Assembly: GCA_018005585.1 (NCBI GenBank)
Contig: JAGMZX010000009.1
Location: 6,185 to 70,184, forward strand
Direction of reading: 5' to 3'
DNA length: 64,000 nucleotides
Source: Candidatus Hydrogenedentota bacterium
GTDB taxonomy: Bacteria > Hydrogenedentota > Hydrogenedentia > Hydrogenedentales > JAGMZX01
The notes below the pieces were generated by a model. The model was not told the DNA's origin. It saw nothing but the letters and a program-made list of their open reading frames with translations, and did not search any database. This document shows, in pieces, positions 10,626-44,197 of the stretch. A program made the translations under genes and the position numbers. Positions within the stretch are counted from its first letter, which is position 1. The number at the start of each line of letters is the position of its first letter.

Positions 10626-10628
10626 GTC

Positions 10629-11252
10629 TTACAACACGCCATTTTGTTCCAAGCACGCGCGCAACAGGCGCCGCGCCTGATTCAGCCGCGATTTCACGGT
10701 GCCCTCAGGACATTCGAGGGCGTCCGCGATCTCCTCGTAACTGCGCTCATCGAAAATCCTAAGCACGAACGCCAGCCGGTATGCGTCAGGCACCTGTTCC
10801 AGGCACGCCTCCAGCGCCGCCTGCAATTCACCGCGCTGCGCACGCTCGCGCGGCGTATCGCAATCCGCCGCGGCCGCCTGCGCCGCGCCCGGCGCCGCTT
10901 CCTCGAGCCCTTCGAGCGAAATCGCCTGGCCCCGGCCCTTGCGGCCCCGGTCGCGCACCCGGTTCCGCGCAAGGTTCACCGCGATCCGGTACAACCATGT
11001 ATACACTCGCGCCTCGCCGCGGAAATCGGCCATGCCGCGATACGCCCGCAGGAACACCTCCTGCGCTACGTCCAGCGCGTCCTCGCGGTTGCCCAGGAAG
11101 CGATACAGCACCGCGTAGACGCGATCTTTGTACCGGCGCATGAGCGCCTCGAACGCCGCGTCGTCGCCTTCCTGACACGCCGTCACGAGCGCCATGTCCG
11201 CTTGCCGCGTGCCTTCGCGCAATGCTTCCACGGACCGCCTGACTCCGTTCAT
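10629..11252 (-). CDS. ECF (sigma-70 family group IV) RNA polymerase sigma factor
   Basis: Region 2 'DDAAFEALMRRYKDRVYAVLYRFLGNREDALDVAQEVFLRAYRG' and region 4 'SYEEIADALECPEGTVKSRLNQARRLL'. Internal ATG at 11252 chosen for a 208-aa product. Confidence 0.85.
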   Translation of the reverse strand: MNGVRRSVEALREGTRQADMALVTACQEGDDAAFEALMRRYKDRVYAVLYRFLGNREDALDVAQEVFLRAYRGMADFRGEARVYTWLYRIAVNLARNRVRDRGRKGRGQAISLEGLEEAAPGAAQAAAADCDTPRERAQRGELQAALEACLEQVPDAYRLAFVLRIFDERSYEEIADALECPEGTVKSRLNQARRLLRACLEQNGVL

Positions 11253-11558
11253 ATCTTTGGACACCGGTTGGGGAAAAGGGTTCGCCGCCATTCTACACGC
11301 CCCGGCGCAGGCAAGGGAACCCGCGCGGTGATTCACGACCCCGGGAACACGAGGGCGCCGCACCCGTCTGCAGTCTTGGAGGCAGCGACAGGGACGTCGC
11401 GTCCGCGGGGAGAATTGTTTATAGTGTCATTCCTTATGCGCAACGACATAATTCCCCTGTTCGTTGTCCAAGCTTCAGCGTGCGGATTTTCGGGGACAAC
11501 CTGACGGTTGAACGACGAACAAGGGGCGTCGATTGTGACGCCGTGTATAGAGGCAAGA

Positions 11559-16519: not shown

Positions 16520-19500
16520 TCAGTTGGGCGCAAAGCAGAAGCCGTCTTCCGTGCCGGAATCCGGGCACGGATAGCAGCCGCCCGCATTGTAGAACTGCAC
16601 GACCCGGAGCAGTTCGGACAAGTCGATCCGCCAGTCCGCGGGGGCGTAGTCGAGGTCGTGCGGCGGGCACCATTGGCCGCCCGGCCCGGGCGCGTATCCA
16701 TCTTCCGTGCCCAGTTCGCAATGGTGGCTCTTCGTGTTATAGAACTGGATGACGCGCAGCAGCTCGGCGAGGCCGATGCGGAAATCGCCGTTCTGGTCCG
16801 CGGTATGGCCGCAATCATCGAGGATGATGACCGTGCGTACGACGGGTTCGGCTTCGTTCCCCTGGCTGTCTGCGACACGGTAGGTGACGGGGTATTCGCC
16901 GGGTGAGTGCTCCACAATGCTGCTCTCGGCCCGGATGAAGGCGGTCCTGTCGCCGTCTACGAGGTCGAAGGCCATCGCGCCGGGGTCCATGAAGTCGTCG
17001 AAGCAACGCAGCGTCACTATGGCGTCGCCTATGAGCACGAGCGTGGGCGCGGTGGAATCGGCGACCAGCACATGGCGGACGGACGGCTGGGCCTCGTTGC
17101 CTTCCGAATCCGACACCCGATAGGTCACCGTGTATGCTCCCGGCGTGTCTTCATCCACAGTGTTTTCGACCTGCAGCAGCGCCGTAAGGTCGCCCTGGCG
17201 CGAGTCCGCGGCGATGGCGCCCGGGTCGGCATAGGCCGTGCCCGCTTCGTGCAGGAGAGTCTCCGGCCCGATTAAAGTAATGACCGGCGGCGTCGTGTCG
17301 GCCACATGGACCAGGCGCTGCGCGTCGGCCGTATTGCCCGACGCGTCTTCTACCGAATAGGCGACGGTGTAATCGCCCAGCACGGCGACGTTCACGTTGT
17401 CCGTCACCACAATGGCGGCGGTGAGGTCGCCATCCACGGTGTCCGCGGCGGTGGCGCCCGGGTCGGCATAGGGGGTCGCTGCTTCATGCGTCAGTTCAGA
17501 GGGGCCTGTGACCGTGATTATGGGGGCGGTCGTGTCCACGACATGAACGGCGCGCAACGCTTGTGCCGGATTACCAGACGAGTCGGCCAGTGAATAGGTG
17601 ACCGTGTAATCACCCGGAATCGCCGGGTTCACGTCATTCGCGGTCTGTATGGCCGCGGTGAGATCGCCGTCGTAGTTGTCGAACGCGGTGGCACCTGGGT
17701 CATTGTAGGGTTCGGGCGCTTCGTGGGTCAGGGGATTGTCTCCCGTGACGGAGAGCACGGGCGGGACCTCGTCCACGACATGAACCGTGCGCACGGCCGG
17801 GATGGACACATTCCCCGCGGCGTCCTGCGCGGTATACGTCAACACGTACGCGCCCAGTATCTCCGTATCGGCCATGCCGATGACGACTACGGCCGCGCTG
17901 AGGTCGCCGTCGAGCGCATCCCACGCCACGACCCCCGGTTCTGCGAAGGGCTCTCCGACGGGGACGGACATGTCCGCAGGCCCCAGGAGCGTCACGAAAG
18001 GAGGTTGCGTGTCAACGACATGGACAGTTCGCGAGACGGTTACCGCATCGTTGCGGTTGGCGTCACGCACGTCGTAGGCCAGCACGTACGTGCCGGGCGT
18101 CATGACATCCACGCTCCCCGTCACCCGTATCTCGGGGGTGATGTCACCGCTGAAGGAGTCCCACGCGGTCGCGCCGGGGTCATTGAACGGTTCGGCCGCC
18201 TCGACGGTCATTTCCGCGTCTCCGAGCATCGTGATGACGGGGATTGTGCGGTCGCGCACGTCCACGATGCGCGTCGCCGTCAGCGCAAAGTTGCCCGCGG
18301 TGTCCTCGACATCATAGGTGACGCTGAACGTGTCGATCAGGCTCGGATTGACGTTGTTCGTCATGTTCAAGCGTTCGCTGATGTCGCCCTCCCGGTCGTC
18401 CATGGCAGTTGCGCCGGGATCGAGGTACGGCTCCCCTGCTTCGGCCGTCAACCGGCCCGGTCCGTTCAGCGCGATGACGGGGGCTACCGTGTCGATGATG
18501 AGTTCATCGGTGGTGCTGTCGTGCCCTTCGCGGTTGTACGCGCCTACGGCCCGGACGCGCACGTCGTACACGCCGTCCGGCAGCGGGTCGGGCACGTTAT
18601 GAACCCACTCGTTGTTATCGACGAGGACAGCGCGCCACGTGGCGCCGTCCAGGCTCAGCCCCAGCGCCACCGAGTAGCGCACCGTGCCGGTAATGGCCGG
18701 GCGGGAATCGTTGGTGATCAACGGGTCGACCGTCAGTTCGGGCGCGGGCGGGTAGTAAGAGCCCAGCACGGCGCGGACGTATTCGGGCACGGTTGCGTCG
18801 AGGCCGCCTATGTTCTCGAATTCCTCATAGTTCAGCGCGCCGTCCAGGTCGAGGTCGCCCAGGGACGACAACGGCAGGTCGGCGCCGTTCGAGTAGGGGG
18901 CATAGTCGCCCTCGAGCGACAACCCCGCTTTCAGGATGTCGGCAAAGGCCTGGTCGAGCGTCGCCAGCGCGGCCATGATGTCGAACACGGGGGCCAGGAA
19001 CGGGATACCGGGTTCCACACGGAGCAAGGCCAGATTGGCGTCATGAACCTGTTGCACCGTCTCATGGAGCGGGTGATGTTCATCGCACAAGATAGCCGCG
19101 AGCACGGAAATTTCGTAGCGGTCCGGAATCATGCTGACGTCCGCGTCGGCGGTTTGCCAGACGTCCTCCTCGAACGCGAATTCATAGAAATCGCGGCCTT
19201 GGCTCTCGAACGTGACCGCCACGTCGCAATTGGGAATGGCGGCATCCGGCGCCCGGTTCGGGTCGGAGGCCTCGTCGGCATAGACCTCCGGCGAACCGCC
19301 GCGTATGAACGTCCACGTGAATTCGCGGTCATTGGAGGCGCCGTCGCCGTCCAGGTCGGACGCGGCGGCAAACGGCTCTGCGCTTTCGTACTGGAGGCCG
19401 GCGATTGGGGCGGTCAGGGCCATGTCCTGGACGATGCTGTCTGCGGCTTCCTGGGAGCTTGCGGCGAACAGGGACAGATACCCGATATAGGGCAGGAACA

Positions 19501-21580
19501 GTTCCGCGGCGGGGTCTGCTTCAAGCGCGGCGCGATTGTCCGCGTATACGAGGGCCAGCGGGTCATGGAGCGGGTGCCTCCCGTCGCAGAAGACCCGGCC
19601 CAGCAGCGCAAGTTCGTAGCGGTCAGGAATGCCATTGTCACCCCAGTCCGCGTCTTTCCATTCGATACCCTGCTGCAACGCGACGAAGAATGCCTCTGCC
19701 TCGTCATCGAACACGCTCGGATCCGGGCACGTGGGCAGGTCGTCGGGGCCGCAGCCGGCCGTGGATGCCGCGATGGCGTATTCGACGTGGGCGCACTCCT
19801 GGTCTACAACCCAGTCATATTCGAACAGGTTCGAGATTTCGTCGCCGTCCGGGTCGCCGAGGGACGCAAGCGGAAACGCCATGTCCAACTCGAAGACGCT
19901 GTATGCCGCGGTGAGAGAGAGCGCGGAAACGATGCCGTCGCGCAAGTCAGGCGATATGGCGCAGAACGCTGCAATCGCGTCCGTATAAGGTTCCAGCGCT
20001 GCAAAGCCGGGCTCCGATTCGAGTGCGGCGGCGTTGGAGGCGATAGCGGCCTGAAGCGGGTCATGTCCGGGATATGACGTGTCGCAGCACAGGCGCGCGG
20101 CGAGAGCGAGTTCGAAACGGTCCGGAATGCCGTTGCCGTCCAGGTCAGCGAAAGGCCAAGCGCCGCCGAGTTGTGCGTCATAGAGCGCGTTGCCCTGCAT
20201 TTCCAGAGCCGTAGCTTGGGCGCAGTCCAACAGGCCGCCGCCGAGCCAATAGGCTTGGACACCGCGGAAACTGCCATCGTCCAGGCGCTTCAGCGGATAC
20301 CAGACCGCGTCGTAAATCGTGTCGTCGTCCACGAGGTCGAGGGCGACCGTGCCCGCGCCCGTCATGCCGGAAACGGTGACAAAACAGGTGGCGTCCGCGC
20401 CTGACATGTCCGAAATCACGGCATCGGATACACTGGCCGAAGTGCGCACGGAGAAATCCGTGACATCGACACCGGTAACGGGCTCGGTGAACTTGACCTC
20501 AAAGATGACCTCCGGCGCGTCCGTCGGATTAGCGGCTTCCGCCAAAGGGCGAATACTGGCAACCACGGGCGGGGTGGAATCCGCGAGCCAGGCCGCGTAG
20601 CACTGGCGCACCGCGTTTTCCATGAACGTCAGGAAACCCTCCGCATTCAGGTGGAGCGGGTCCATCTCGCCGTCATCTATTTTCATGACGATACGCGGGT
20701 TGTACAGGTCTGGCCTGCCATTCGGGAAATTGGCGTAGCCGTTCTCCGGCCCGTCGGGTATGCCGGCTTCGCCCGGTTCCACCCCCTCGGCAGGCACGCC
20801 AAAAACGTGCTGGACATAGCCGAAATTGTGGATGTACGTGACGCGGCCGGGAAACTCTTGCGCGAGTTCAATCTTGCGCCGCTCCAATTCGGCCCAAATG
20901 TCGTGTACTTCCCGGACGATTTCGAGCACTTCCTGCCGGTTGGCGGGTATTGGATAGCCCCAGTAGGTGACCGCCCAGTGCGTGATGCTTTCGTAGTCCC
21001 AGACTTCGCCGAAATCGTTGATCATGAAGCCTTCGTACAAGTTGACGTAATCGTAGCCCAGCAAGGCCACGCGCACGTCCGGGCGCTGGTCGAGGCAGAA
21101 CTGCACCACGTTCCGGATGTGGCCGATGATTTCGGCCATCATCGTATCGACCTGCGCCGGGCTCATGAATTGTTTCCATGTGTGAACGATGTCGTTGCCG
21201 CCCAGGCTTACGTGGCAGATATCGAGCGTGGGCAAGGCAGCCAGCCGGTCCGCAATCTTCTGAAGCTGCTCCGGCGTGTCCCAGCCTTCCGCGAAGATAT
21301 TGGTCAAACCGATACTGCCATCTTCGCGGTACTGCCCGAGGTCGAATTCCGGGCGGGCAAGGACTTCCTCGAGCGCGGGCGGCGATTGCAGCGCGTAGGG
21401 GAAAAACACCCAACTGTCGCCAACGTCCAGGATGCGCGCGATATCCCCCCGCGCGCATACCGCGAAGCAGCATAATGACAGCACGACACCGCACGACCGC
21501 CGAAACGCATCCCGCTTGCCAACTGCGTTCCGCGCGCGCCTTGCCTTGCCGCACCACACGCTCCGCCGCTGCATTCTCAC
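16520..21580 (-). CDS. Giant secreted multidomain protein (1686 aa). Domains in order: SGNH/GDSL hydrolase domain; three ~140-aa repeats flanked by Dx[DN]xDG calcium-binding motifs; an Ig-like domain; 7 tandem DUF5011-like ~77-aa repeats; C-terminal pair of dockerin-like repeats.
   Basis: 'ILDVGDSW' (GDS) and 'HVSLGGNDI' SGNH blocks. Repeats 'DLDGNGIPDRFELA..CD..HPLHD' appear three times. Seven repeats of 'DxxxPxIxLxG...xExGxxYxDPGATAxDxxDGDLT' follow. C-terminus has 'DQNGDFRIGLAELLRVIQFYN' and 'DWRIDLSELLRVVQFYN'. Confidence 0.8.
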   Translation of the reverse strand: MRMQRRSVWCGKARRARNAVGKRDAFRRSCGVVLSLCCFAVCARGDIARILDVGDSWVFFPYALQSPPALEEVLARPEFDLGQYREDGSIGLTNIFAEGWDTPEQLQKIADRLAALPTLDICHVSLGGNDIVHTWKQFMSPAQVDTMMAEIIGHIRNVVQFCLDQRPDVRVALLGYDYVNLYEGFMINDFGEVWDYESITHWAVTYWGYPIPANRQEVLEIVREVHDIWAELERRKIELAQEFPGRVTYIHNFGYVQHVFGVPAEGVEPGEAGIPDGPENGYANFPNGRPDLYNPRIVMKIDDGEMDPLHLNAEGFLTFMENAVRQCYAAWLADSTPPVVASIRPLAEAANPTDAPEVIFEVKFTEPVTGVDVTDFSVRTSASVSDAVISDMSGADATCFVTVSGMTGAGTVALDLVDDDTIYDAVWYPLKRLDDGSFRGVQAYWLGGGLLDCAQATALEMQGNALYDAQLGGAWPFADLDGNGIPDRFELALAARLCCDTSYPGHDPLQAAIASNAAALESEPGFAALEPYTDAIAAFCAISPDLRDGIVSALSLTAAYSVFELDMAFPLASLGDPDGDEISNLFEYDWVVDQECAHVEYAIAASTAGCGPDDLPTCPDPSVFDDEAEAFFVALQQGIEWKDADWGDNGIPDRYELALLGRVFCDGRHPLHDPLALVYADNRAALEADPAAELFLPYIGYLSLFAASSQEAADSIVQDMALTAPIAGLQYESAEPFAAASDLDGDGASNDREFTWTFIRGGSPEVYADEASDPNRAPDAAIPNCDVAVTFESQGRDFYEFAFEEDVWQTADADVSMIPDRYEISVLAAILCDEHHPLHETVQQVHDANLALLRVEPGIPFLAPVFDIMAALATLDQAFADILKAGLSLEGDYAPYSNGADLPLSSLGDLDLDGALNYEEFENIGGLDATVPEYVRAVLGSYYPPAPELTVDPLITNDSRPAITGTVRYSVALGLSLDGATWRAVLVDNNEWVHNVPDPLPDGVYDVRVRAVGAYNREGHDSTTDELIIDTVAPVIALNGPGRLTAEAGEPYLDPGATAMDDREGDISERLNMTNNVNPSLIDTFSVTYDVEDTAGNFALTATRIVDVRDRTIPVITMLGDAEMTVEAAEPFNDPGATAWDSFSGDITPEIRVTGSVDVMTPGTYVLAYDVRDANRNDAVTVSRTVHVVDTQPPFVTLLGPADMSVPVGEPFAEPGVVAWDALDGDLSAAVVVIGMADTEILGAYVLTYTAQDAAGNVSIPAVRTVHVVDEVPPVLSVTGDNPLTHEAPEPYNDPGATAFDNYDGDLTAAIQTANDVNPAIPGDYTVTYSLADSSGNPAQALRAVHVVDTTAPIITVTGPSELTHEAATPYADPGATAADTVDGDLTAAIVVTDNVNVAVLGDYTVAYSVEDASGNTADAQRLVHVADTTPPVITLIGPETLLHEAGTAYADPGAIAADSRQGDLTALLQVENTVDEDTPGAYTVTYRVSDSEGNEAQPSVRHVLVADSTAPTLVLIGDAIVTLRCFDDFMDPGAMAFDLVDGDRTAFIRAESSIVEHSPGEYPVTYRVADSQGNEAEPVVRTVIILDDCGHTADQNGDFRIGLAELLRVIQFYNTKSHHCELGTEDGYAPGPGGQWCPPHDLDYAPADWRIDLSELLRVVQFYNAGGCYPCPDSGTEDGFCFAPN
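16820..18470 (-). repeat. Intragenic tandem array (about 7 units of about 230 bp) encoding the DUF5011-like repeats of the giant protein. Boundaries are approximate.
   Basis: Periodic protein motif 'DPGATA.D..DGD' and recurrent DNA strings (for example 'gcccgggtcggcatagg' at about 17221 and about 17461). Confidence 0.55.
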
Positions 21581-26934: not shown

Positions 26935-28113
26935 ATGCACAACCCTCCGCGTATCTTAAGTATCGAAGATGAGGCGACCGTCCGGCGCGGCATGGCCGCC
27001 TACCTGACGGACAGTGGTTACGAGGTTATCGAGGCAGAGAACGGGCGGATCGGCCTGCAGCGCGTTCTTCTTGATGAACCGGACCTGATCCTCTGCGACT
27101 TGCGCATGCCGGAACTCGACGGCATGCGGGTGTTGTCTGAAGTGCGCCGGCTTGTTCCGGAATTGCCGTTCATCATCGTCTCAGGTTCCGGTGAGATGAT
27201 AGACGCGATCGAAGCGCTGCGCCTGGGGGCGTGGGACTATCTCCTGAAACCCATTGAGGACATGGGAATTCTGGAACATGCCGTGAAGCGCGCGCTGGAC
27301 CAGGCGCGTCTTATCCAGCAGAACCGCAAATACCGGGAGGACCTCGTCGCCACCAACCGCCGTCTGCAGCAAAGCCTGCAACAACTGGAAGAGGACGAGA
27401 CGGCGGCCCGGTACATCCAGTTCCAGTTGCTTCCCCAGCGGTCGACGGTGCTCAACGGCGTCCTGTTCGATTATTTCTTGAGGACTTCCGCGTTTCTCAG
27501 CGGAGATTTTCTGGACTATTTCAAGATCAACGACGCGCAAACGGGTTTTTACGTGGCGGACGTTTCCGGGCACGGGGTCTCGTCCGCTTTCGTCACGGTG
27601 CTGCTCAAGAATACGATCAGCCATTTGATCGACGAATACCGCGAGTTCAAGAACGATACTATCCTGGACCCCGGCCGGGTACTGAAACTGCTGAATGACC
27701 GGATTCTCGCACGGAAATTCGACAAGCACCTCACCATGTTCTTCGCGGTGATCGACACGGGGCAACAGGTCATGCGGTACGGGAACGCAGGGCATTTCCC
27801 CTATCCGGTCTTTCATGACGGGCAGTCGGCACATTTCCTGGCCGACACGCATCTGCCCGTGGGCATGTTTGAGGATTGGACGTATGCTTCCAAGACGCTG
27901 ACGCTGCCGGAGTCTTTCGCTTTGGCCATATTCTCTGACGGCGTCTTCGAGGTGTTCCCGGCACACCGGCTGCTCGACAAGGAGAACCGGCTGCTCTCGC
28001 TGATGGAGCCGTGCGTCCCGGACATCGAGACCGCGGTGGACGCTTTGGGGCTTGCGCGGCCAGGACAGGTGCCTGACGACATATCGGTGCTCTTGCTCAA
28101 GAAAGGAGGCTGA
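26935..28113 (+). CDS. Response regulator receiver domain fused to PP2C-type (SpoIIE/RsbU-like) serine phosphatase
   Basis: Receiver motif 'ILSIEDEATVRRGMAAYL...LILCDLRMPELDG...VSGSG'; PP2C region 'GDFLDYF...YVADVSGHGVSSA...FSDGVFE'. Confidence 0.85.
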   Translation: MHNPPRILSIEDEATVRRGMAAYLTDSGYEVIEAENGRIGLQRVLLDEPDLILCDLRMPELDGMRVLSEVRRLVPELPFIIVSGSGEMIDAIEALRLGAWDYLLKPIEDMGILEHAVKRALDQARLIQQNRKYREDLVATNRRLQQSLQQLEEDETAARYIQFQLLPQRSTVLNGVLFDYFLRTSAFLSGDFLDYFKINDAQTGFYVADVSGHGVSSAFVTVLLKNTISHLIDEYREFKNDTILDPGRVLKLLNDRILARKFDKHLTMFFAVIDTGQQVMRYGNAGHFPYPVFHDGQSAHFLADTHLPVGMFEDWTYASKTLTLPESFALAIFSDGVFEVFPAHRLLDKENRLLSLMEPCVPDIETAVDALGLARPGQVPDDISVLLLKKGG

Positions 28114-28115
28114 GG

Positions 28116-28628
28116 GTGGACACAGGTAACATCCTGTATGCGCGGCGGGGCGACTTGGTGGCGCTGAAGTTTGTGGGGAGAATTGGCTTTGCACAGGGCG
28201 GCTCCCGGCATCTTCTGGCATCCTTGAATACCTTCTTGAATGGCCTGTTTGAAGCCGGGGATGTCAGGTACTTCCTGGTCGACCTTACGGAAGCCTCAGG
28301 GATAGACAGCACGGGTCTGGGGCTGCTGGCCAAGATAACGAAGCACACCATACAGCGGTTCAGCCGAAAGGCCATCCTCCTGACGATGACGGAAGATATG
28401 GAACGCATTCTGGAAAGTATGGGCTTTCACGCCGTCTTCCTCATCATTCATGGGCCGCCGGAACAGTGCACGGACCTGACCTCCCTGCCGGAAGTCGAGG
28501 AAAGCGACCGTGAATGGGCGTGTACCGTCTTGGCCGCGCATAAGGAACTGTGTGCACTGAACGAGGCCAATCGCGAGACGTTCCGGGGCGTGGTCGATAC
28601 GCTCGAAGACGCACTGGAGCACCGCTAG
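28116..28628 (+). CDS. STAS-domain protein (anti-sigma factor antagonist-like) with an about 60-aa C-terminal extension. Likely substrate of the upstream RR-PP2C phosphatase.
   Basis: 3-bp spacing from the PP2C gene; STAS-like 'DLTEASGIDSTGLGLLAKI'. Confidence 0.65.
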   Translation: MDTGNILYARRGDLVALKFVGRIGFAQGGSRHLLASLNTFLNGLFEAGDVRYFLVDLTEASGIDSTGLGLLAKITKHTIQRFSRKAILLTMTEDMERILESMGFHAVFLIIHGPPEQCTDLTSLPEVEESDREWACTVLAAHKELCALNEANRETFRGVVDTLEDALEHR

Positions 28629-32173: not shown

Positions 32174-33253
32174 ATGAATGCGGCCCCGGGCGCCATAAAC
32201 ATAGTTTCGCCCCTCGAATGGGAGGCGGGCCGGCTGACCATTCTGGACCAGACCCTCTTGCCGCAGGAAACGCGCCGTATCGAACTTGCCACACTGCATC
32301 AGGTCCACGAAGCCATTCGCAGTCTGCGTGTGCGCGGCGCACCGGCGATCGGCTGTTGCGCGGCCTTCGGCGTGCTTGTCGGCGTTCTCGAAAAACGCCC
32401 GGACACCGTTAGGGATGCGCTTCGTGCGGCGGAGGAAGCCGCCGCGTATCTGGCTGCTGCACGCCCGACGGCGGTGAACCTGTTCTGGGCGGTGGAGCGC
32501 ATGCGCGCGGCTGCCGTGGCTAACGCGGGCGCGGAGAGCGTGTCCGCCTTTCTGTCGCGCCTCGAAGGGGAGGCGGTGGGGATTCTCGAAGAGAACCGGC
32601 GTATCTGCCTCGCCATCGGCGAACACGGCGCGGCCCTGGTCCATGCCGGGGACGGTGTGTTGACTCACTGTAATGCGGGGCCCCTTGCCACCGCGGGCTA
32701 CGGCACGGCGCTGGCGGTGGTTTTCCGGGCATGGGAACTGGGCCGGCGCGTTCGGGTCTTTGCCGGCGAGACACGCCCCTTGCTGCAAGGCGCGCGTCTT
32801 ACCGCGTGGGAATTGGCGCAAGCGGGAATAGACGTGACGCTCATTTGCGACAACATGGCCGCGCAAGTGATGCGCGAAGGCCGCGTGCAGCTGGTCGTGG
32901 TCGGCGCGGACCGCATCGCCGCGAACGGCGACACCGCAAACAAGATCGGCACTTACGGACTCGCCTTATTGGCACAGAACCACGGAATCCCCTTCTACGT
33001 GGCCGCACCCTCTACCACCTTTGATTTTGCGTTGCGGGATGGCGCGGGCATTCCGATAGAAGAGCGCAGCGCGGAAGAAGTCACGGAAGGATTTGGCCGC
33101 AGAACCGCGCCGGAAGGGATTCGCGTCTATAACCCGGCGTTCGATGTGACCCCCGCGGAACTGATTGCGGGATTCATCACGGAAAAGGGCGTATTGCGGC
33201 CGCCGTACCTGAAAGGCTTGGAGGTTCTCGGGCCGGGGGGAAATAGGACGTGA
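32174..33253 (+). CDS. mtnA: S-methyl-5-thioribose-1-phosphate isomerase (eIF-2B alpha/beta/delta family)
   Basis: 'LTILDQTLLPQE', 'VRGAPAIGCCAAFG', 'VGADRIAANGDTANKIGTY'. Confidence 0.85.
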   Translation: MNAAPGAINIVSPLEWEAGRLTILDQTLLPQETRRIELATLHQVHEAIRSLRVRGAPAIGCCAAFGVLVGVLEKRPDTVRDALRAAEEAAAYLAAARPTAVNLFWAVERMRAAAVANAGAESVSAFLSRLEGEAVGILEENRRICLAIGEHGAALVHAGDGVLTHCNAGPLATAGYGTALAVVFRAWELGRRVRVFAGETRPLLQGARLTAWELAQAGIDVTLICDNMAAQVMREGRVQLVVVGADRIAANGDTANKIGTYGLALLAQNHGIPFYVAAPSTTFDFALRDGAGIPIEERSAEEVTEGFGRRTAPEGIRVYNPAFDVTPAELIAGFITEKGVLRPPYLKGLEVLGPGGNRT

Positions 33254-33259
33254 CGGCAC

Positions 33260-35269
33260 TTGTCGTATGACGCGTTTGTAGAGCATGTCTTGGACAGGTC
33301 TCCGGAAGAGGCCTGTTCCATGACCTTGGAGGACGTTGCGCTGTGCGCGGCGTGGTGCGAATCCAAGGGGGAGACGCTTGCGGACCAGGCGAGCCGTATT
33401 CAGGCCCTTGAGGCGCGTTGGGCCGCTGAACACGAGCCGCCAGCCACTCTGTTTGAAGGGGGCCGGCAGCAACCCCTGCTCAGGAAACTGATTGACGAAT
33501 TGCGTGCCGGGAGCCTTGCCCGGCTTGCCCGAGACGAGCTGGATTTTCTCTGCATTGCTTACGAACTCATGGGGCGCGCGGCGCGGCCCGAGGAGTTTGC
33601 CCGGCCGCGGTCCTGCATCGAACCCCACATCGAGGCTATTATCCAAAGGCGCGCGGAACTTCCGGTGGCGCCCGGGCTGCCGGCCCTGGAACACCGCGTG
33701 ACCCTGGTTCTGCCGCGGGAATTAGAGGCGGCGCCGGTGCGTCGGCTGACCGCGTTTGCCGGGATGGCCCTTCCCTTCACGGGGCATGTGCTGCAGCATT
33801 GGGGCACGGTCCGTATAGTCGGGGACGTGCCGGAAGACTGTGCGGTGGCAGTCGAGGAAGGCGACTGTTACGTGGGCGGTTACGTGCTGGGCCACGTGGC
33901 GGCTACCTTCTGTTGCGAAGTGTGCCGGAACGTGTCCGGCGCCGTGGTGGTGCGCCGGGGCGACGTATCCCTGCGCGACATCATCGACCATGCGCTTGTG
34001 GTCAGCAAGCATGGTTCGGTTCGGTGCCGCGCGTCGCGAAGGCCGCGCCTGGTCTTCGCGCAACAGCAGTTCCTCGCACGGACGTGCGTGGCGGGCGGCC
34101 TTTATTTCGCCGCGGCCGTCCAGGTGCAGGGCGAAGTCTTCGGCGGAACGCTGCACATCGCGGGTACGGGGCGGGCGTCGCGTTTTCGCTGTGATCCTGA
34201 ACACGCGCTGATGATTGTGCTGCGCCGCGGCTTGAACCACGGCGATTACGGCGAACGCATGCCGGAAGACGCGCTGCGCCTGCTATTGCGCGCGCGCATG
34301 TTGCGGCGGCGCGCGAAGGACTTGCGCGACATGACCGCAATGGCCCGGCGCGAGTCGGAGCATTTTGCGCGCAATGCCCTGCTGTTCTTGTCCGGCGGCG
34401 ACCGGGTCACGGCGTCCGTCGAGCGCCTTGAGACCGCGGAACGGCGTCTGGCGTTCCTGGACCGGGTCATCGCAGGCATGGAATCGATGATGGAACGGCT
34501 GGATGAGCGCCTGAATGCGCGCAAACTGTCGGAAGAACGGCAACCCGTTGACGAGGCCGATGACACGACGCTCGAGGCGCTGCGGCGCGAACTGCAATCC
34601 CTGGAATCCGAGGGCGGCATCGACGAGGAACTGGCGCGCAAGCGCGACGAAGTCCTCAAGCTTCAACATGACCTGCGGGACCGGCGCTCGGAGCTTGGCG
34701 AGGCGCTGGCATTGCTCCGGGGTCTGCTGGAACGCGTGTCCGCGTGGCAGAACGAACGGCAGACGCTCGCCGGCAGCATCGAAGCCATGCGCGCGGAGGT
34801 CCAACAGGGGATTGGGCGCGTGGCCGTCCTGGACCGGGCCGGCAACGGCCTGCCGGGCCTGAAAATCTTGCAGCAGGTGCTGACGGCAGCCCGCGAAGAA
34901 CCCGCAGCCTCGCCTGTGGCCGCGCGGTTGCGGCATCCTTTCATGAAGCTCATGCTGCGCAACATCGAGCAACACGGCAATCGTGTGCGCGCCTTTGCGG
35001 CAACGCTTCGGGAGACCTGCGACGAATATGCGGAGGCAGCGCGCGTCCTGCAAACAGAGCATCACGTGCAACTTCCCGGCGCGGCATCTGGCGAGGAAGA
35101 ACCCGGCGGCCGGGTCACGGGCGCGTTTGACGCAGGCGTGCGCATCTACGCGAACTTGCGCGCGTTCGAGACGGACGCCCCCGAGGGCCGCGGACGTGTC
35201 ACGACCGCCGCAAGCGCGGATTCCGTAACCTACCGGCTGGGCCACGCGGGAACGGTTGAGCGTGCCTGA
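33260..35269 (+). CDS. Large hypothetical protein (669 aa): central Gly/Val-rich beta-helix-like repeats (bactofilin/FapA-DUF342-like) followed by a long C-terminal coiled coil
   Basis: 'VRIVGDVPEDCAVAVEEGDCYVGGYVLGHVAATFCCEVCRNVSGAVVVRRGDVS' and E/R/L-rich heptad region 'ERLETAERRLAFLDRVIAGMESMMERLDERL...'. Same strand and tight spacing with mtnA and cmk. No domain confirmed; the exact start is uncertain. Confidence 0.5.
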   Translation: MSYDAFVEHVLDRSPEEACSMTLEDVALCAAWCESKGETLADQASRIQALEARWAAEHEPPATLFEGGRQQPLLRKLIDELRAGSLARLARDELDFLCIAYELMGRAARPEEFARPRSCIEPHIEAIIQRRAELPVAPGLPALEHRVTLVLPRELEAAPVRRLTAFAGMALPFTGHVLQHWGTVRIVGDVPEDCAVAVEEGDCYVGGYVLGHVAATFCCEVCRNVSGAVVVRRGDVSLRDIIDHALVVSKHGSVRCRASRRPRLVFAQQQFLARTCVAGGLYFAAAVQVQGEVFGGTLHIAGTGRASRFRCDPEHALMIVLRRGLNHGDYGERMPEDALRLLLRARMLRRRAKDLRDMTAMARRESEHFARNALLFLSGGDRVTASVERLETAERRLAFLDRVIAGMESMMERLDERLNARKLSEERQPVDEADDTTLEALRRELQSLESEGGIDEELARKRDEVLKLQHDLRDRRSELGEALALLRGLLERVSAWQNERQTLAGSIEAMRAEVQQGIGRVAVLDRAGNGLPGLKILQQVLTAAREEPAASPVAARLRHPFMKLMLRNIEQHGNRVRAFAATLRETCDEYAEAARVLQTEHHVQLPGAASGEEEPGGRVTGAFDAGVRIYANLRAFETDAPEGRGRVTTAASADSVTYRLGHAGTVERA

Positions 35270-35338
35270 AGCACCGTGATAGCATCCGTCTTCTCTCGAC
35301 GCCGCAAGAGGCCGCGGCGTTTCCGGGCCGGAGGTCTG

Positions 35339-36013
35339 ATGCCGAGAATCACCTGGATCGTGGCTATTGACGGCCCCGCGGGCGCGGGGAAGAGCACGAC
35401 GGCGCGGCGCGCCGCCGAGGCGCTCGGTTTCGCGTTTCTCGATACGGGCGCCATGTATCGCGCGGCGACGTGGTGGGCGTTGCACAACGGCGTCGACCTC
35501 GATGACGCGGCGGCGCTCGCCGCTTCCACCGAAGCCATGCAATTGGAGATAGCAGAGGCCGGGGGCAGGCAGCGGGTGACGGTCGGCGGCAGGGACGTGA
35601 CGGAAGCGATCCGCACGCCCGAAGTGACGCGGCTCATTTACAGGGTCGATCAGAATCCCGCGGTGCGGCGGCGCCTGGTCGCCCTCCAGCGGGAGCTAGG
35701 CGCGCGCGGCCCAACAGTGGCCGAAGGCCGGGATATCGGGACGGTCGTGTTTCCGGACGCCGCCTGCAAGGTCTATCTGGACGCTTCCTTGGACGAGCGG
35801 ACACGCCGCCGCGCCCGCGAACTGGAAGCCAGGGGCATCGCCGTCGATTTCGACGCGCTGCGCGCGGAAATCCACGACCGAGACGAGAAGAACAAGAACC
35901 GGCAGCAGTCGCCCTTGCGCCAGGCGGACGACGCCGTGCTGGTCGATACGACGGCTATGAGCCCCGACGAAGTCGTACACGCCATTGTGCGTCTTGCACG
36001 GGAGCGCCTGTGA
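35339..36013 (+). CDS. cmk: Cytidylate kinase
   Basis: P-loop 'IAIDGPAGAGKST', 'LDTGAMYRA', 'GRDIGTVVFPDA'. Confidence 0.9.
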   Translation: MPRITWIVAIDGPAGAGKSTTARRAAEALGFAFLDTGAMYRAATWWALHNGVDLDDAAALAASTEAMQLEIAEAGGRQRVTVGGRDVTEAIRTPEVTRLIYRVDQNPAVRRRLVALQRELGARGPTVAEGRDIGTVVFPDAACKVYLDASLDERTRRRARELEARGIAVDFDALRAEIHDRDEKNKNRQQSPLRQADDAVLVDTTAMSPDEVVHAIVRLARERL

Positions 36014-37710
36014 ACGGGGCGCCGAAACGGCAATGGCGGATTGGCGAGCAGGACCGCGCCGTCACGATGGCGCTGGCGCGCGAAGTTGGCGTCGCGCCGG
36101 TAGTGGCGAAGCTGTTGATGGCGCGCGGCGTGCATGACGGTGACGCGGCCCGTGAGTTCCTCAATCCCACGCAAAAGCAACTCAGCGACCCGTTCCTGCT
36201 TACAGACATGCTCGCCGCCGCGGACCGCATCGCCGAGGCGAGGGAGCGGGGCGAGCATGTGCGCGTGTTTGGCGATTACGATGTCGACGGGATTGCCGCG
36301 ACGGCCATCCTTTTCACGGGGCTGCGCCGGTTCGGTATCCCGCAGGTTAGTTACGGGATGCCGCAGCGGCTGGTCGAGGGGTATGGCATTAACGCCGAGC
36401 ATGTGGATGCCGCGAGCCGCGACGGCGTTTCGCTGATCATCACCGTGGACAACGGCGTGCGGGCATATGCCGCGGCCGCCCGCGCGCGGGACCTTGGGAT
36501 CGACCTCATCATCACGGACCACCATTCCATCGATGGCCCCTTGCCGGAAGCCGTGGCGGTCGTCAATCCGAAGCGCGAAACGCCGGAGCATCCGGCGTGG
36601 CGCCTTTGCGGGGCGGGTATCGCGTTCAAGCTTTCAGAGGCGCTCAACGGCACGCGCAACGACCTTGACCTGGCCGCGCTCGGCACGGTCGCCGACATTG
36701 TGCCCCTCCTTGGCGAGAACCGCGTCATTGTGACGCTGGGTCTCAAGCACATGGCGAGATACGCCCGCACGGGCCTGGCGCAGCTTGCGTCCGTGGCCGG
36801 CCTCAAGGTGCGCGAGCTACGCTCCCGCGAACTCGGTTTTCAAATCGCTCCCCGGCTCAATGCGGCGGGCCGCCTGAGCGACGGATTGACCGCGCTGCGC
36901 CTCTTGCTCGAAGAAGACACCACCGCCGCGCACGTAATGGCGCTCGAACTGCACCGGGCCAACGACGACCGCCGCGCCATCGAAAAAGCCATCTACGACG
37001 ACGCCGTTGCGGAACTGGACGGCGTATTCCGCCCGGAACAGCGCACGATCGTGCTGGCGCGGCGCGGCTGGCACCCGGGCGTCATCGGCATTGTCGCCAC
37101 GCGCGTGCAGACATGCTTTTACCGCCCCGTCTTGCTGGTCGCGATCGACGAGAACGGCATGGGCAAAGGCTCGGGCCGGAGCATCCCGGGTTTTGACCTT
37201 GTGGGCGCGCTTGGCGCGTGCGAGGGGACTTTCGAGCAATACGGCGGGCATCAGGCCGCCGCGGGGCTGACCATTCGCGAAGAGAACATCCCCGCATTCC
37301 GCGAGGCGTTCGAGGCGGAGGCGCTGCGCCGGCTTGGGCCGGACGAAATTCTGCCCGTGCTCGAAATCGACGGGCCCGTATCGCTGAGCGAACTCGACGG
37401 CGGTTTCATGAACACGCTCGCGCACCTCGAACCGTTCGGCAACAGCAATCCCGCGCCGCTCTTCTGCGCGCTGGATGTCGAACTCGTGCCGCGCTCGCCC
37501 CGCCTGTTGAACGGCGGCCATCTCAGGCTTTCCGTCCGCCAGGGCGGCCGCGTTTTTGAGGCCGTGGGTTTCGGGTTCGCCGAATGGATGCCGCCCGAGG
37601 CCGTGCCGCGCCGCCTCGACATCGCCTTCGTGCCGGAACTCAACACATACCGGAACGAGACCTACGTCCAGCTCGTGCTGCGCGACCTGCGTCCGGCTCA
37701 GGGCGGCTGA
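36010..37710 (+). CDS. recJ: Single-stranded-DNA-specific exonuclease RecJ (DHH/DHHA1)
   Basis: 'VFGDYDVDGIAA', 'IITVDNG', 'LIITDHH', DHHA1 'GGHQAAAGL'. Start overlaps the cmk stop (GTGA). Confidence 0.9.
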   Translation: MNGAPKRQWRIGEQDRAVTMALAREVGVAPVVAKLLMARGVHDGDAAREFLNPTQKQLSDPFLLTDMLAAADRIAEARERGEHVRVFGDYDVDGIAATAILFTGLRRFGIPQVSYGMPQRLVEGYGINAEHVDAASRDGVSLIITVDNGVRAYAAAARARDLGIDLIITDHHSIDGPLPEAVAVVNPKRETPEHPAWRLCGAGIAFKLSEALNGTRNDLDLAALGTVADIVPLLGENRVIVTLGLKHMARYARTGLAQLASVAGLKVRELRSRELGFQIAPRLNAAGRLSDGLTALRLLLEEDTTAAHVMALELHRANDDRRAIEKAIYDDAVAELDGVFRPEQRTIVLARRGWHPGVIGIVATRVQTCFYRPVLLVAIDENGMGKGSGRSIPGFDLVGALGACEGTFEQYGGHQAAAGLTIREENIPAFREAFEAEALRRLGPDEILPVLEIDGPVSLSELDGGFMNTLAHLEPFGNSNPAPLFCALDVELVPRSPRLLNGGHLRLSVRQGGRVFEAVGFGFAEWMPPEAVPRRLDIAFVPELNTYRNETYVQLVLRDLRPAQGG

Positions 37711-40047: not shown

Positions 40048-40968
40048 ATGCGCGATGTAGCGGCCATATGCTGTCTGGGCTTGATCATAGCCGTTGCCTC
40101 CGGCTGCGAGGCGGGCGGCGGGGGCAAGGTCATCGGCGCCGCGATGCTCACGGCGACGCACGTGTTCTACCAGGACCTGGTAGAAGAGATGGAGGCGGCG
40201 GCGAAGGAACAGGGCTTCACGCTGCGCGTCCAGTACGCGGAATTCAACAGTCAGCGGCAAGTTGAGCAGATCGAGATGTTTATCGCTCAGGGCGTTAACG
40301 CCCTGATCATCGCGCCGACGGACTCGAGCGGCATGGGCCCGGCCATCGCGGCCGCGCGCGCGCGCGGGATACCCGTGTTTACGGCCGACATTGCCGCGAA
40401 AGATGCGGACGTGGTCAGCCATATCGCCTCGGACAACCACCAGGGCGGCGCAATCCTCGCGGAATACCTGGCGGGATTGCTCGGCGGCAAGGGTACGGTC
40501 GCGGTCATCGACAATCCCGAGGCGACATCCGTCCAGGACCGTGTGCGCGGCTTCGAGGAGACCCTGGCCAAACACCCGGATATCCGCATCGTGCAAAAGG
40601 CGCCGGGCGAGGGGCAGCGCGACAAGGCGCACAGCGCCGCCGAGAAGCTCTTGTCGGCCTATCCCGACCTGAGCGCGATCTTTGGCGTCAACGACGATTC
40701 GGCCCTGGGCGCGCTGGCGGCGGTTGAGGCGGCGGGGCTGCAGGACAAGGTCATCGTGGTGGGGTTCGACGGCACGCCCGAGGCCCGTGCGGCCATCCAG
40801 GCGGGCAAGGCGCTGAAAGCGGATACGGTGCAGTATCCGCGCGAGATTGGCCGGAAGACCATCGAGACGGTCGCGGCGTTCCTGCGCGGCGAGCGTGTGC
40901 CGAAGCAGGTCGACGTGCAGGTGGGCATCATCGACAAGGCGAAGTTGGACGCGGAGCAGGGGCCATGA
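40048..40968 (+). CDS. Sugar ABC transporter substrate-binding lipoprotein (CUT2 / ribose-type periplasmic binding protein)
   Basis: Lipobox 'AVASGC'; PBP type-I pattern 'FIAQGVNALIIAP...IPVFTADI...VGFDGTPEA'. Confidence 0.85.
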   Translation: MRDVAAICCLGLIIAVASGCEAGGGGKVIGAAMLTATHVFYQDLVEEMEAAAKEQGFTLRVQYAEFNSQRQVEQIEMFIAQGVNALIIAPTDSSGMGPAIAAARARGIPVFTADIAAKDADVVSHIASDNHQGGAILAEYLAGLLGGKGTVAVIDNPEATSVQDRVRGFEETLAKHPDIRIVQKAPGEGQRDKAHSAAEKLLSAYPDLSAIFGVNDDSALGALAAVEAAGLQDKVIVVGFDGTPEARAAIQAGKALKADTVQYPREIGRKTIETVAAFLRGERVPKQVDVQVGIIDKAKLDAEQGP

Positions 40969-42533
40969 AGACGCAAATTCCCGGACAAGGCCGGGTCATT
41001 CTCGAGATGCGGGGCGTCTCGAAGTCGTTTCCCGGCGTGAAGGCGCTGGACCGTGCGGAACTCGAGGTGCGCGCGGGCGAGGTGCACTGCCTCGTGGGCG
41101 AGAACGGCGCCGGGAAATCGACCTTGATGAAAATCCTCGCGGGCGCAGTCCCTCTGGACGAGGGCGAGATCCGCATCGACGGGCAACCGGTTCATGTTCG
41201 CTCGCCGCACCATGCCCAGCAACTGGGCATCAGCATGATCTACCAGGAATTCAACCTCAGCCCGTACTTGAGCGTGGCCGAGAATATCTTTCTCGGACGC
41301 GAGCCGCGTTACGCGCGCACGCCATTCGTGAATTGGCAGGCCATGTACGACCAGGCGCGCGAACTGCTACGCCGCATCAACGTCGACATCGACGTGCGCC
41401 GCCCGGTCAATGAACTCAGCATAGCCCAGCAGCAGATGGTCGAAATCGCGAAGGCGCTCTCTTTCGCGGCGAAGGTCATCGTGATGGACGAGCCTTCCGC
41501 CACGCTGACCGAGCATGAGTTGAACGCCTTGTTCAAGCTGATTCATGAACTCAAGCGTCAGGGTGTGGGCATTATCTACATCTCGCACCGGCTCGAGGAA
41601 CTCTTCGAGACCGGCGACCGCGTCACGATCATGCGAGATGGCAAATACGTGGGCCGCCTCGACATCAGCGCGATTACCGAACGGCGCGACGACCCGGAGC
41701 GTGCGGCGAAAATCACGGCGACACGGGACGAGATCATCCGCATGATGGTGGCGCGGAAGCTCGAAGAGGGCCTGTTTCCCAAAGAGAAGTTCCATCGCGG
41801 TGAACAGATTCTGCGCGTCGAAGGCTTGTGCCGCTACGGCGTATTTCATGACATCAACTTCTCCGTGCACAAGGGCGAGATCGTCGGGCTTACCGGGCTG
41901 GTTGGCGCGGGCCGGACCGAGGTGGCGCGCGCTATTTTCGGCGCGGACCCGCTGGACGAAGGCACGATCTATCTCGATGGGAAGCCGATCGAAGTGCGTT
42001 CCCCGCAGGACGCAATCCGGCACGGAATCGGCCTCCTGACGGAGGACCGCAAGAATCAGGGGCTCATCCTGGGGATGACGGTGCGGGAGAATACGTCGCT
42101 GGCGAACCTCAAGCAACTGGTGCGGGGGTTGTTCTTCTTGGACAAGCGCAAAGAGCGCGATGCCGCGGCCCGGCTGTCGCGAGACCTGGAGATACGCACG
42201 CCCACGGTGGAAACCGCGGTACAGACGCTGAGCGGCGGCAATCAGCAGAAGGTAGTGCTGGCGAAGTGGCTGTTCACGCAGTCGAAGGTGCTGATCTTTG
42301 ACGAACCGACGCGCGGCATTGATGTCGGCGCGAAGGTGGCCATATATGAACTCATGAACAAGCTGGTACGGCAGGGCGTCGGGGTGCTCATCATTTCGAG
42401 CGAATTGCTCGAAGTCATCGGCATGTGCGACCGCATTCTCGTGATGAACAGCGGGTGGATGCCTAACGAGGCTTCGCGGGAATTGCAGAACTGGCCTTCG
42501 CATGAATTGACGCATGCGGAAGTGAACGCGTAG
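40965..42533 (+). CDS. Sugar ABC transporter ATP-binding protein with duplicated NBDs (RbsA/MglA type)
   Basis: Two Walker A sites ('GENGAGKST', 'GLVGAGRTE') and two signature motifs ('LSIAQQQMVEIAKAL', 'LSGGNQQKVVLAKWL'). Confidence 0.9.
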   Translation: MKTQIPGQGRVILEMRGVSKSFPGVKALDRAELEVRAGEVHCLVGENGAGKSTLMKILAGAVPLDEGEIRIDGQPVHVRSPHHAQQLGISMIYQEFNLSPYLSVAENIFLGREPRYARTPFVNWQAMYDQARELLRRINVDIDVRRPVNELSIAQQQMVEIAKALSFAAKVIVMDEPSATLTEHELNALFKLIHELKRQGVGIIYISHRLEELFETGDRVTIMRDGKYVGRLDISAITERRDDPERAAKITATRDEIIRMMVARKLEEGLFPKEKFHRGEQILRVEGLCRYGVFHDINFSVHKGEIVGLTGLVGAGRTEVARAIFGADPLDEGTIYLDGKPIEVRSPQDAIRHGIGLLTEDRKNQGLILGMTVRENTSLANLKQLVRGLFFLDKRKERDAAARLSRDLEIRTPTVETAVQTLSGGNQQKVVLAKWLFTQSKVLIFDEPTRGIDVGAKVAIYELMNKLVRQGVGVLIISSELLEVIGMCDRILVMNSGWMPNEASRELQNWPSHELTHAEVNA

Positions 42534-42562: not shown

Positions 42563-44197
42563 ATGATGCAAAAGAAGCAACCGGCGGGGGGAGGAAAGAA
42601 GAAGGGAAAGGCTTCGCCCAAGAAGAAGGAACAGCTCCCGCCGCAGGCGACCGCTGGCGGCAAACCGGCGCAGGAAACGCCGGAGGAGTCGGTGCTCGTC
42701 CGTGAAGCGGCGCGGAAAGCGGCTGAAGCGGTGAAGGCTCAGCCGGGTGCGCCCGCGGAACCGCCGCTGCGCCTCGAAGTCGAGGGGGGAAGAGGCGCGG
42801 CGGCCGCAGCCAAGAAGGGAGAGAAGACCGGCCAGGAAAAGATCATGGACCTGGCGACGAAGAAGATGCCGCCGCTGCCGCAGAAGGAGCGCGCCCGGTC
42901 GCGGCGCGGCTACGCGTGGCTGATTGTGGGTATCGTCGGGGTCGTCCTGGGCGTCGTCGCCGGCCCATACGTGGGCCCCAAGTTCGCGTTCTTGCCCAAT
43001 CCCCAATTGCGCGAGATTGAACGGCTGAACGGCGTCATTTCCGGGCTGCAGGTGGACATCGACGACTTGTCCGCCGCCAATACCGGCCTTGAAGGGCAGG
43101 TGGGGGCGTTGACCAGCGAGCGCGACACGCTGCAGAAACAGAAGGCCGCTCTCACGGACCACGCGGCGGCGCTGTCTTCCGCCGCGGTGAAGCTCGAGGA
43201 AGGCTGCGCTGCGGCGTATGCAGAGATTGAGCAGTTGCGCGGCAGGGTCACGGGCTTGACCACGGAACGGGACCAGTTGACGCAATCGGTGCAGACGTTG
43301 ACCTCCGAACAGGAACAGTTGCAGCAGGAACACGCGAACCTGGCCGCGCAATTCGAGCAATTGCAGCAGGACCATACCGCGCTCACCGCGGACAAGGAGC
43401 AGTTGGGGCAGGAATTGAATGCGGCGCTGGACGAGACGCGGCAACTTAAGGAGAACAATACGGGCCTGACGCAGGAGAACGCGGCTTTGACTGCGACGCT
43501 CGACAAGGCGCGGCAGGACGCCGCCGCGGCGCAGCAGGCGCACGAAGCGCTGGCCGCCGAGCATGCGGCGCTGCAGGAACGCGTCACGGCGCTCGAGCAG
43601 GAGCTTGCGCAGCAGAAGGAAGTCGCAGCGGCGGAAATGGACGCGTTGCGGAAAAATGTCGAGGCGCTGGGAACGGAGAACGCGGGCATCAAGGAAGTGC
43701 ATGAGAGCCTGACGGCGGAAAACAACACGTTGAAGGAGACGACCCGCGGCCTCACCGAAGAGAATGCGCGCCTGCGCGAAGAGAGCGAAACACTGGCGCA
43801 AGCGAAGGCTGCGCTGGAGGCCGAAATCGCGGCGGCGCGCCAGCAGGCGGAACAACTGGCCGCGCGCGCGGAGGCCATGCGGAATTATTACGTCACCAAG
43901 ATGATGGTTACCGACGCGGCGGGCACACAGAGCGTCGCGGTCGCGGAATGCGTCTTGCAGGGGGATGACGGCGCGTTTGTCTATCGCACGGTGGACGGCG
44001 CGCACGTGGGCTCCTTCGAACGCAAGCCGGAGACGGAAGGCGGCGCCTGGGGGTATCGCGAGAACCTCGATGACGCGGCGCGCGCCCAAGTCGAGCAACT
44101 GATTGCGGGGGCGCGCCCCGCGGACTACGAGGCGCGCCTGAACGCCCTCGCGGACGCTGCGCCCGCGCAACCGGCGCCGCCCGGCGATGGCGGCTGA
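42563..44197 (+). CDS. Membrane-anchored coiled-coil protein (544 aa): Lys-rich basic N-terminus, single TM, about 300-aa coiled coil, C-terminal globular domain. Embedded between the ABC ATPase and permease genes.
   Basis: TM 'YAWLIVGIVGVVLGVVAGPYVG'; heptad-like E/Q/L/A-rich run 'LTSEQEQLQQEHANLAAQFEQLQQDHTALTADKEQLGQELNAALDETRQLKENN...'. Starts 30 bp after the ATPase stop and overlaps the permease start by 11 bp. The antisense 678-aa ORF is an Arg-rich artefact. Confidence 0.7.
   Translation: MMQKKQPAGGGKKKGKASPKKKEQLPPQATAGGKPAQETPEESVLVREAARKAAEAVKAQPGAPAEPPLRLEVEGGRGAAAAAKKGEKTGQEKIMDLATKKMPPLPQKERARSRRGYAWLIVGIVGVVLGVVAGPYVGPKFAFLPNPQLREIERLNGVISGLQVDIDDLSAANTGLEGQVGALTSERDTLQKQKAALTDHAAALSSAAVKLEEGCAAAYAEIEQLRGRVTGLTTERDQLTQSVQTLTSEQEQLQQEHANLAAQFEQLQQDHTALTADKEQLGQELNAALDETRQLKENNTGLTQENAALTATLDKARQDAAAAQQAHEALAAEHAALQERVTALEQELAQQKEVAAAEMDALRKNVEALGTENAGIKEVHESLTAENNTLKETTRGLTEENARLREESETLAQAKAALEAEIAAARQQAEQLAARAEAMRNYYVTKMMVTDAAGTQSVAVAECVLQGDDGAFVYRTVDGAHVGSFERKPETEGGAWGYRENLDDAARAQVEQLIAGARPADYEARLNALADAAPAQPAPPGDGG

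Follow-up and report, generated by a model that had tools for sequence, protein, structure and literature searches.

A divergent FapA/DUF342 superfamily protein encoded between mtnA and cmk in Candidatus Hydrogenedentota

The window analysed here comprises 64,000 nucleotides (nt) of contig JAGMZX010000009.1 (positions 6,185 to 70,184 of the forward strand; assembly GCA_018005585.1) from a Candidatus Hydrogenedentota bacterium, and encodes, between mtnA and cmk, a protein of 669 amino acids (aa), referred to below as the target protein. Homology traced through its relatives places it within the FapA/DUF342 superfamily (PF03961), where it is divergent and belongs to a sub-clade with a conserved architecture of its own, which is predicted to comprise an all-α N-terminal domain, a right-handed β-solenoid, a long helical coiled-coil region and a small C-terminal β region. 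It is best explained, with moderate probability, as a structural protein that would serve as an elongated scaffold or positioning adaptor. Named examples of PF03961 (Flagellar Assembly Protein A beta solenoid domain) are Vibrio vulnificus FapA, V. cholerae VCA1085 and Borrelia burgdorferi BB0267. The DUF342/FapA family is widespread in bacteria but its mechanism is hardly understood, and few studies, in Vibrio and Borrelia, were found in the literature. The target protein shares the solenoid of the superfamily; it departs from the known kind in scoring below the family model, in a new N-terminal α domain, in its long coiled coil and in a non-flagellar, housekeeping gene order that is conserved across the Hydrogenedentota loci examined.

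Relationship to the FapA/DUF342 superfamily

The assignment rests on transitive hidden Markov model (HMM) matches together with full-length profile-profile homology. FapA was matched by 19 of the 70 relatives scanned, with a best E-value of 1.6e-15, and it was the sole recurring family among the seven matched at E ≤ 0.01. Relative to the PF03961 gathering score of 31 bits, P0157 reached 57.9 bits and P0143 and P0152 31.5-31.6 bits, the matches of the relatives covering profile positions ~19-229 of 272; the close relatives P0007, P0008 and P0011 gave sub-threshold matches of 19-22 bits at equivalent residues. P0157, P0143 and P0152 match the target protein at E-values of 1e-20 to 1e-26 (1.4e-20 for P0157), and the target solenoid alone matches the same three proteins at 1e-13 to 1e-19. 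Since this solenoid-only match to P0157 has an E-value of 1.1e-13 on the full-library scale, the link to FapA is not due to coiled-coil composition. Precomputed annotations assign PF03961 to relatives of P0157, among them P0169, which originates from a Hydrogenedentota metagenome-assembled genome (MAG). Alignment with hhalign of the close family (A1) with the FapA-positive group (A6) returned a probability of 100% and an E-value of 7.8e-66 over 661 columns, spanning the full length, such that the N-terminal domain, solenoid, coiled coil and C-terminal motif are all common to both groups. The target protein thus has in common with FapA/DUF342 proteins a homologous β-solenoid followed by a helical coiled coil, and a predicted soluble, non-enzymatic character.

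The first-pass annotation had compared the Gly/Val-rich segment at residues 184-237 of the 669-aa translation with β-helices of the bactofilin or FapA type. The FapA/DUF342 half of that comparison is upheld by the transitive HMM matches and hhalign, while the bactofilin half is not, bactofilin (DUF583) being matched by neither the target protein nor any of the 70 relatives. No match to FapA_N, whose accession we take to be PF20250, was observed in the 70 relatives at E ≤ 0.01. The target protein matched none of the PADLOC (anti-phage defence) and PHROG (phage) models, and NCBIfam returned only coiled-coil noise.

Predicted architecture of the target protein

The AlphaFold2 model, built with a 13-sequence alignment, has a mean predicted local distance difference test (pLDDT) score of 85.1 and a predicted template modelling (pTM) score of 0.72; domain boundaries are listed in Table 1. 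The N-terminal domain displays a confidently predicted fold for which no solved or known relative was found, and contains the conserved residues W54, R69, Q71, L74, R75, E93 and L97 and the motif G-x-R-Q-Q-P-L-L-R. The solenoid, ~175 residues long, is the most conserved domain of the protein; in it, 28 positions reach 80% conservation or more. It ends in a cap motif, L-R-x-x-L-x-x-x-D-Y-G-E (D329, Y330, G331, E332), whose DYGE residues are among these positions. It is followed by ~266 residues of predicted helix, in agreement with the coiled coil of about 250 aa that had been read from the sequence at first pass, consisting of an 88-residue helix, return helices at residues 433-518 and a 42-residue helix at residues 560-601; this is the least conserved part of the protein. 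The C-terminal region contains the conserved residues G621, F623 and G626 and the motif G-x-F-D-A-G-V-x-I, which the close family and the FapA-positive group both retain. Neither a transmembrane segment nor a signal-like N-terminus (maximum hydropathy 1.45) nor a Walker A motif was identified in the target protein, which is thus predicted to be soluble, cytoplasmic and non-enzymatic.

Coding strand and translation start

The region also contains a 419-aa open reading frame (ORF) on the opposite strand, and base composition by itself leaves the choice of strand ambiguous, as GC content at codon positions 1/2/3 is 0.746/0.481/0.767 in the sense frame and 0.786/0.51/0.731 in the antisense ORF, where GC1 exceeds GC3. 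The strands were therefore compared by aligning the target gene, codon by codon, with the DNA of its 75%-identical homolog P0002, located in a locus of the same gene order (L028). Substitutions in the sense frame fall at codon positions 1/2/3 in the numbers 120/89/291, 56% of the changed codons are synonymous, and identity is 74.6% for protein and 75.1% for nucleotides. In contrast, only 13.5% of the changed codons are synonymous in the antisense frame, where 75% nucleotide identity corresponds to 50% protein identity. The sense ORF is intact in 15 of 15 relatives examined (648-815 aa), whereas the longest antisense ORF in the same relatives varies from 131 to 788 aa, the shortest occurring in a genome of 49% GC. 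On the codon comparison and this variable length the antisense ORF is a high-GC artefact, as had been suspected at first pass.

These data bear on the rival proposal that no gene exists here, or that the opposite-strand, Arg-rich ORF is the actual gene. The similarity of sense GC1 and GC3 and the presence of long antisense ORFs are the points in its favour; the third-position excess and synonymous changes confined to the sense frame, the intact sense ORFs and the confidently predicted fold of the sense product leave it effectively refuted. By its substitution pattern and its homologs with intact frames, the 669-codon frame is thus a genuine, conserved Candidatus Hydrogenedentota gene on the forward strand, as the first-pass annotation had proposed. 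The doubt expressed there about the coding frame is settled in favour of the forward strand by the codon-aligned comparison.

The public annotation of the gene (P0001/P0160; MBP8128509.1, "hypothetical protein", Candidatus Hydrogenedentes MAG) describes a 649-aa product that starts at ATG 33320, 20 codons downstream of TTG 33260. As P0002 carries GTG at the codon equivalent to TTG 33260, and residues 2-20 are conserved among homologs and confidently predicted as helices, TTG 33260 is judged the better start from the alignment and the model.

Gene order and phylogenetic distribution

The target gene lies 6 nt downstream of mtnA and 69 nt upstream of cmk, taking ATG 35339 as the cmk start, which is the most likely choice because a homolog starts likewise; the end of cmk and the start of recJ share 4 nt. 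All four genes are co-directional, and these short distances suggest that the target gene is probably co-transcribed with mtnA, cmk and recJ. The tight, co-directional spacing with housekeeping genes described at first pass is therefore confirmed, with the identities of mtnA and cmk supported by their TIGRFAM matches (Table 1).

Table 1. Coordinates of the target gene, its predicted domains and the adjoining features in the window
Feature	Position	Strand	Evidence or remarks
Target coding sequence, complete, 669 aa + stop	33260..35269	+	FapA-like solenoid/coiled-coil protein; start TTG 33260
N-terminal all-α domain, residues 1-146	33260..33697	+	Helices at residues 2-146 in model; clade-specific
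Right-handed β-solenoid, residues 147-335	33698..34264	+	Solenoid at residues 147-321 in model; pLDDT mostly >90
Long helical coiled-coil region, residues 336-605	34265..35074	+	Helices at residues 336-601 in model
Small C-terminal β region, residues 606-669	35075..35266	+	AlphaFold2 strands 618-623, 628-630, 646-648, 652-660, 666-668
mtnA (S-methyl-5-thioribose-1-phosphate isomerase), upstream	32174..33253	+	TIGR00512 439.6 bits (cut-off 279); Pfam IF-2B 1.1e-82
cmk ((d)CMP kinase), downstream	35339..36013	+	TIGR00017 230.5 bits (cut-off 135.55)
recJ	36010-37710	+	DHH, DHHA1 and RecJ_OB domains
Antisense ORF, 419 aa, not a gene, high-GC artefact	34283..35542	-	Codon comparison; variable length in relatives

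A word-indexed search retrieved 12 full-length homologs with 33-100% identity, while an exhaustive phmmer search of 1.84 billion representatives gave 229 matches at E ≤ 1e-3, of which 129 reached E ≤ 1e-30; the listed matches are mostly 640-700 aa long and collinear along the whole length. A scan of 185,579 species, with one genome per species, located 18 loci, all in Candidatus Hydrogenedentota MAGs. Among these 18 loci, mtnA is directly upstream in 13, cmk is downstream in 13 and recJ in 10; those that lack one of the three genes are mostly on short contigs, and L011, L013 and L017 have none of the three. The mtnA and cmk products are mostly 62-70% identical to those of the window and RecJ 50-55% (50-70% overall), compared with 29-39% for the target protein across the same loci, which indicates that it evolves considerably faster than the adjoining enzymes. 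The branch defined here is thus well conserved, comprises ~229 sequence clusters that mostly escape the Pfam model, and is so far found only in Hydrogenedentota.

Several observations concern individual loci. The gap between the target homolog and cmk is widened to 450-600 nt in several relatives (L003-L005). The MAG records of L001, L002, L014 and L015 are titled "uncultured Nitrospirales/Nitrospiraceae bacterium"; these labels are probably wrong, because the gene order is that of the target (mtnA upstream and/or cmk-recJ downstream) and their mtnA and cmk, 62-70% identical to those of the window, are as close to it as those of Hydrogenedentota-labelled genomes. Two tandem paralogs of the family occur in one Hydrogenedentota MAG, outside the mtnA-cmk context (L013, JACPGE010000075.1, 7866-9986 and 10224-12203). 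Second-messenger genes lie near distant FapA-positive relatives (L027 3024-4100; L022 5729-6220; L024 5781-6272), with a PAS-nucleotidyl cyclase gene directly upstream of P0159 at a gap of 41 nt and a PilZ gene ~4 kb from P0163 and P0165. This proximity may be coincidence; a motif check found the target's family to lack an RsiG-type cyclic di-GMP-binding motif.

Proposed function and alternative explanations

According to work cited in PMC6877527 and PMC8789113, the polar flagellum of Vibrio vulnificus depends on FapA, which the landmark protein HubP recruits and dephospho-EIIAGlc removes from the pole. From this published example and from the architecture described above we infer scaffolding, partner binding and subcellular positioning for the target protein. 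Partner proteins would bind to the N-terminal domain and to the solenoid, which bears the conserved DYGE cap, while the coiled coil would supply length as a spacer and probably self-association (oligomerisation); the partners would thereby be kept at a specific cellular site, analogous to Vibrio FapA at the cell pole. Four points weigh against this interpretation. Superfamily membership is transitive, as the target protein itself passes no Pfam threshold and shows no PF03961 match even at E 0.1, in which it differs from recognised FapA/DUF342 proteins. The coiled coil could be a hairpin or extended, and the C-terminal strands may or may not rejoin the solenoid in the predicted model. The mtnA/cmk/recJ neighbourhood offers no functional hint of positioning, and the function of FapA/DUF342 is itself known from few flagellated species only.

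Three other functions were considered. The target protein might be orthologous to canonical FapA in function as well, acting in flagellar assembly at the flagellated pole although its gene lies apart from the flagellar genes. The two share a β-solenoid superfamily, and a flagellar role is conceivable because many Hydrogenedentota are predicted to be flagellated, FliG being encoded in 108 of 179 genomes (~60%) of a phylum for which motility is predicted (PMC11406978 and supplement). However, fapA resides across bacteria in flagellar superoperons near flhF, flhG and sigma-28 (PMC11607428), in contrast to the mtnA, cmk and recJ context of 13 of the 18 loci described here, and no flagellar gene, nor any chemotaxis or min/par gene, was identified among the 25 window proteins scanned. 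The distant FapA-positive relatives likewise have housekeeping neighbours, such as folC, accD and an RNase H-like gene. In addition, the target's family displays an all-α N-terminal domain with no FapA_N detected, and both its helical region of ~266 aa and its overall size (669 aa, compared with ~60 kDa for VcFapA, PMC6877527) depart from the canonical form. A canonical flagellar role is thus considered unlikely.

An alternative in which the protein is a MinC-like regulator, its solenoid binding a MinD/ParA/FlhG-type ATPase and thereby controlling where division or another machine is positioned, appears improbable. The C-terminal domain of MinC (MinC_C, PF03775) was matched in two relatives, but at 12-20 bits against a cut-off of 33.2; this similarity is no greater than that to unrelated β-helices, many of which score higher, and the target solenoid is much longer than the MinC domain. 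The N-domain of MinC gave no match, and the min operon context is missing: neither minD nor parA adjoins the gene in any locus examined. More improbable still is a bactofilin-like, self-polymerising cytoskeletal filament protein. A β-solenoid core with Gly/Val-rich, hydrophobic rungs, a predicted cytoplasmic location and the lack of an enzymatic signature agree with it. Bactofilins, however, are short proteins with disordered tails, unlike a protein with a 146-aa helical N-domain and a 266-aa coiled coil, and the solenoid matches FapA instead.

For the preferred interpretation, a divergent FapA/DUF342 scaffold or positioning adaptor, a more specific version can tentatively be put forward, although it seems rather less probable: the clade would be a FapA-like scaffold uncoupled from flagella, that is, a phylum-specific cell organiser (associated with the pole, division site or nucleoid) whose N-terminal α domain recruits a lineage-specific partner and whose expression is constitutive, from the nucleotide/DNA-maintenance operon mtnA-X-cmk-recJ. 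If true, the DUF342 solenoid would be a module for positioning in general rather than for flagella. The data suggest a use of the FapA solenoid beyond flagellar assembly, and they provide a name and a testable hypothesis for a protein of an uncultured phylum that has so far been annotated as "hypothetical"; the advance is an incremental one that leaves the overall picture unchanged.

Additional genes of the window

Positions 42563-44197 (+) encode a protein of 544 aa, Lys-rich at its N-terminus and containing a long coiled coil, which matches ZapB at 47.9 bits (cut-off 31.5) and phrog_13113 at E 2.4e-16, and displays coiled-coil similarity of the crescentin/intermediate-filament type. Its gene separates a sugar ATP-binding cassette (ABC) ATPase gene (40965-42533) from the following gene in an apparent sugar-ABC transporter operon, an unusual setting for a cytoskeleton-like protein. 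At 26935-28628 (+), a protein that combines a response-regulator receiver with a SpoIIE/PP2C phosphatase precedes a STAS-domain protein; the two look like a partner-switching signalling pair. On the reverse strand, a 1686-aa protein with seven Bact_surface_Ig-like repeats (E 2.4e-122; 16520-21580) is presumably a large cell-surface adhesin, and an extracytoplasmic function (ECF) sigma factor gene (10629-11363) is followed, within 9189-11363, by a 478-aa ORF without Pfam match, the N-terminus of which (…FSAYLDGEMD…) reads like that of an anti-sigma factor.
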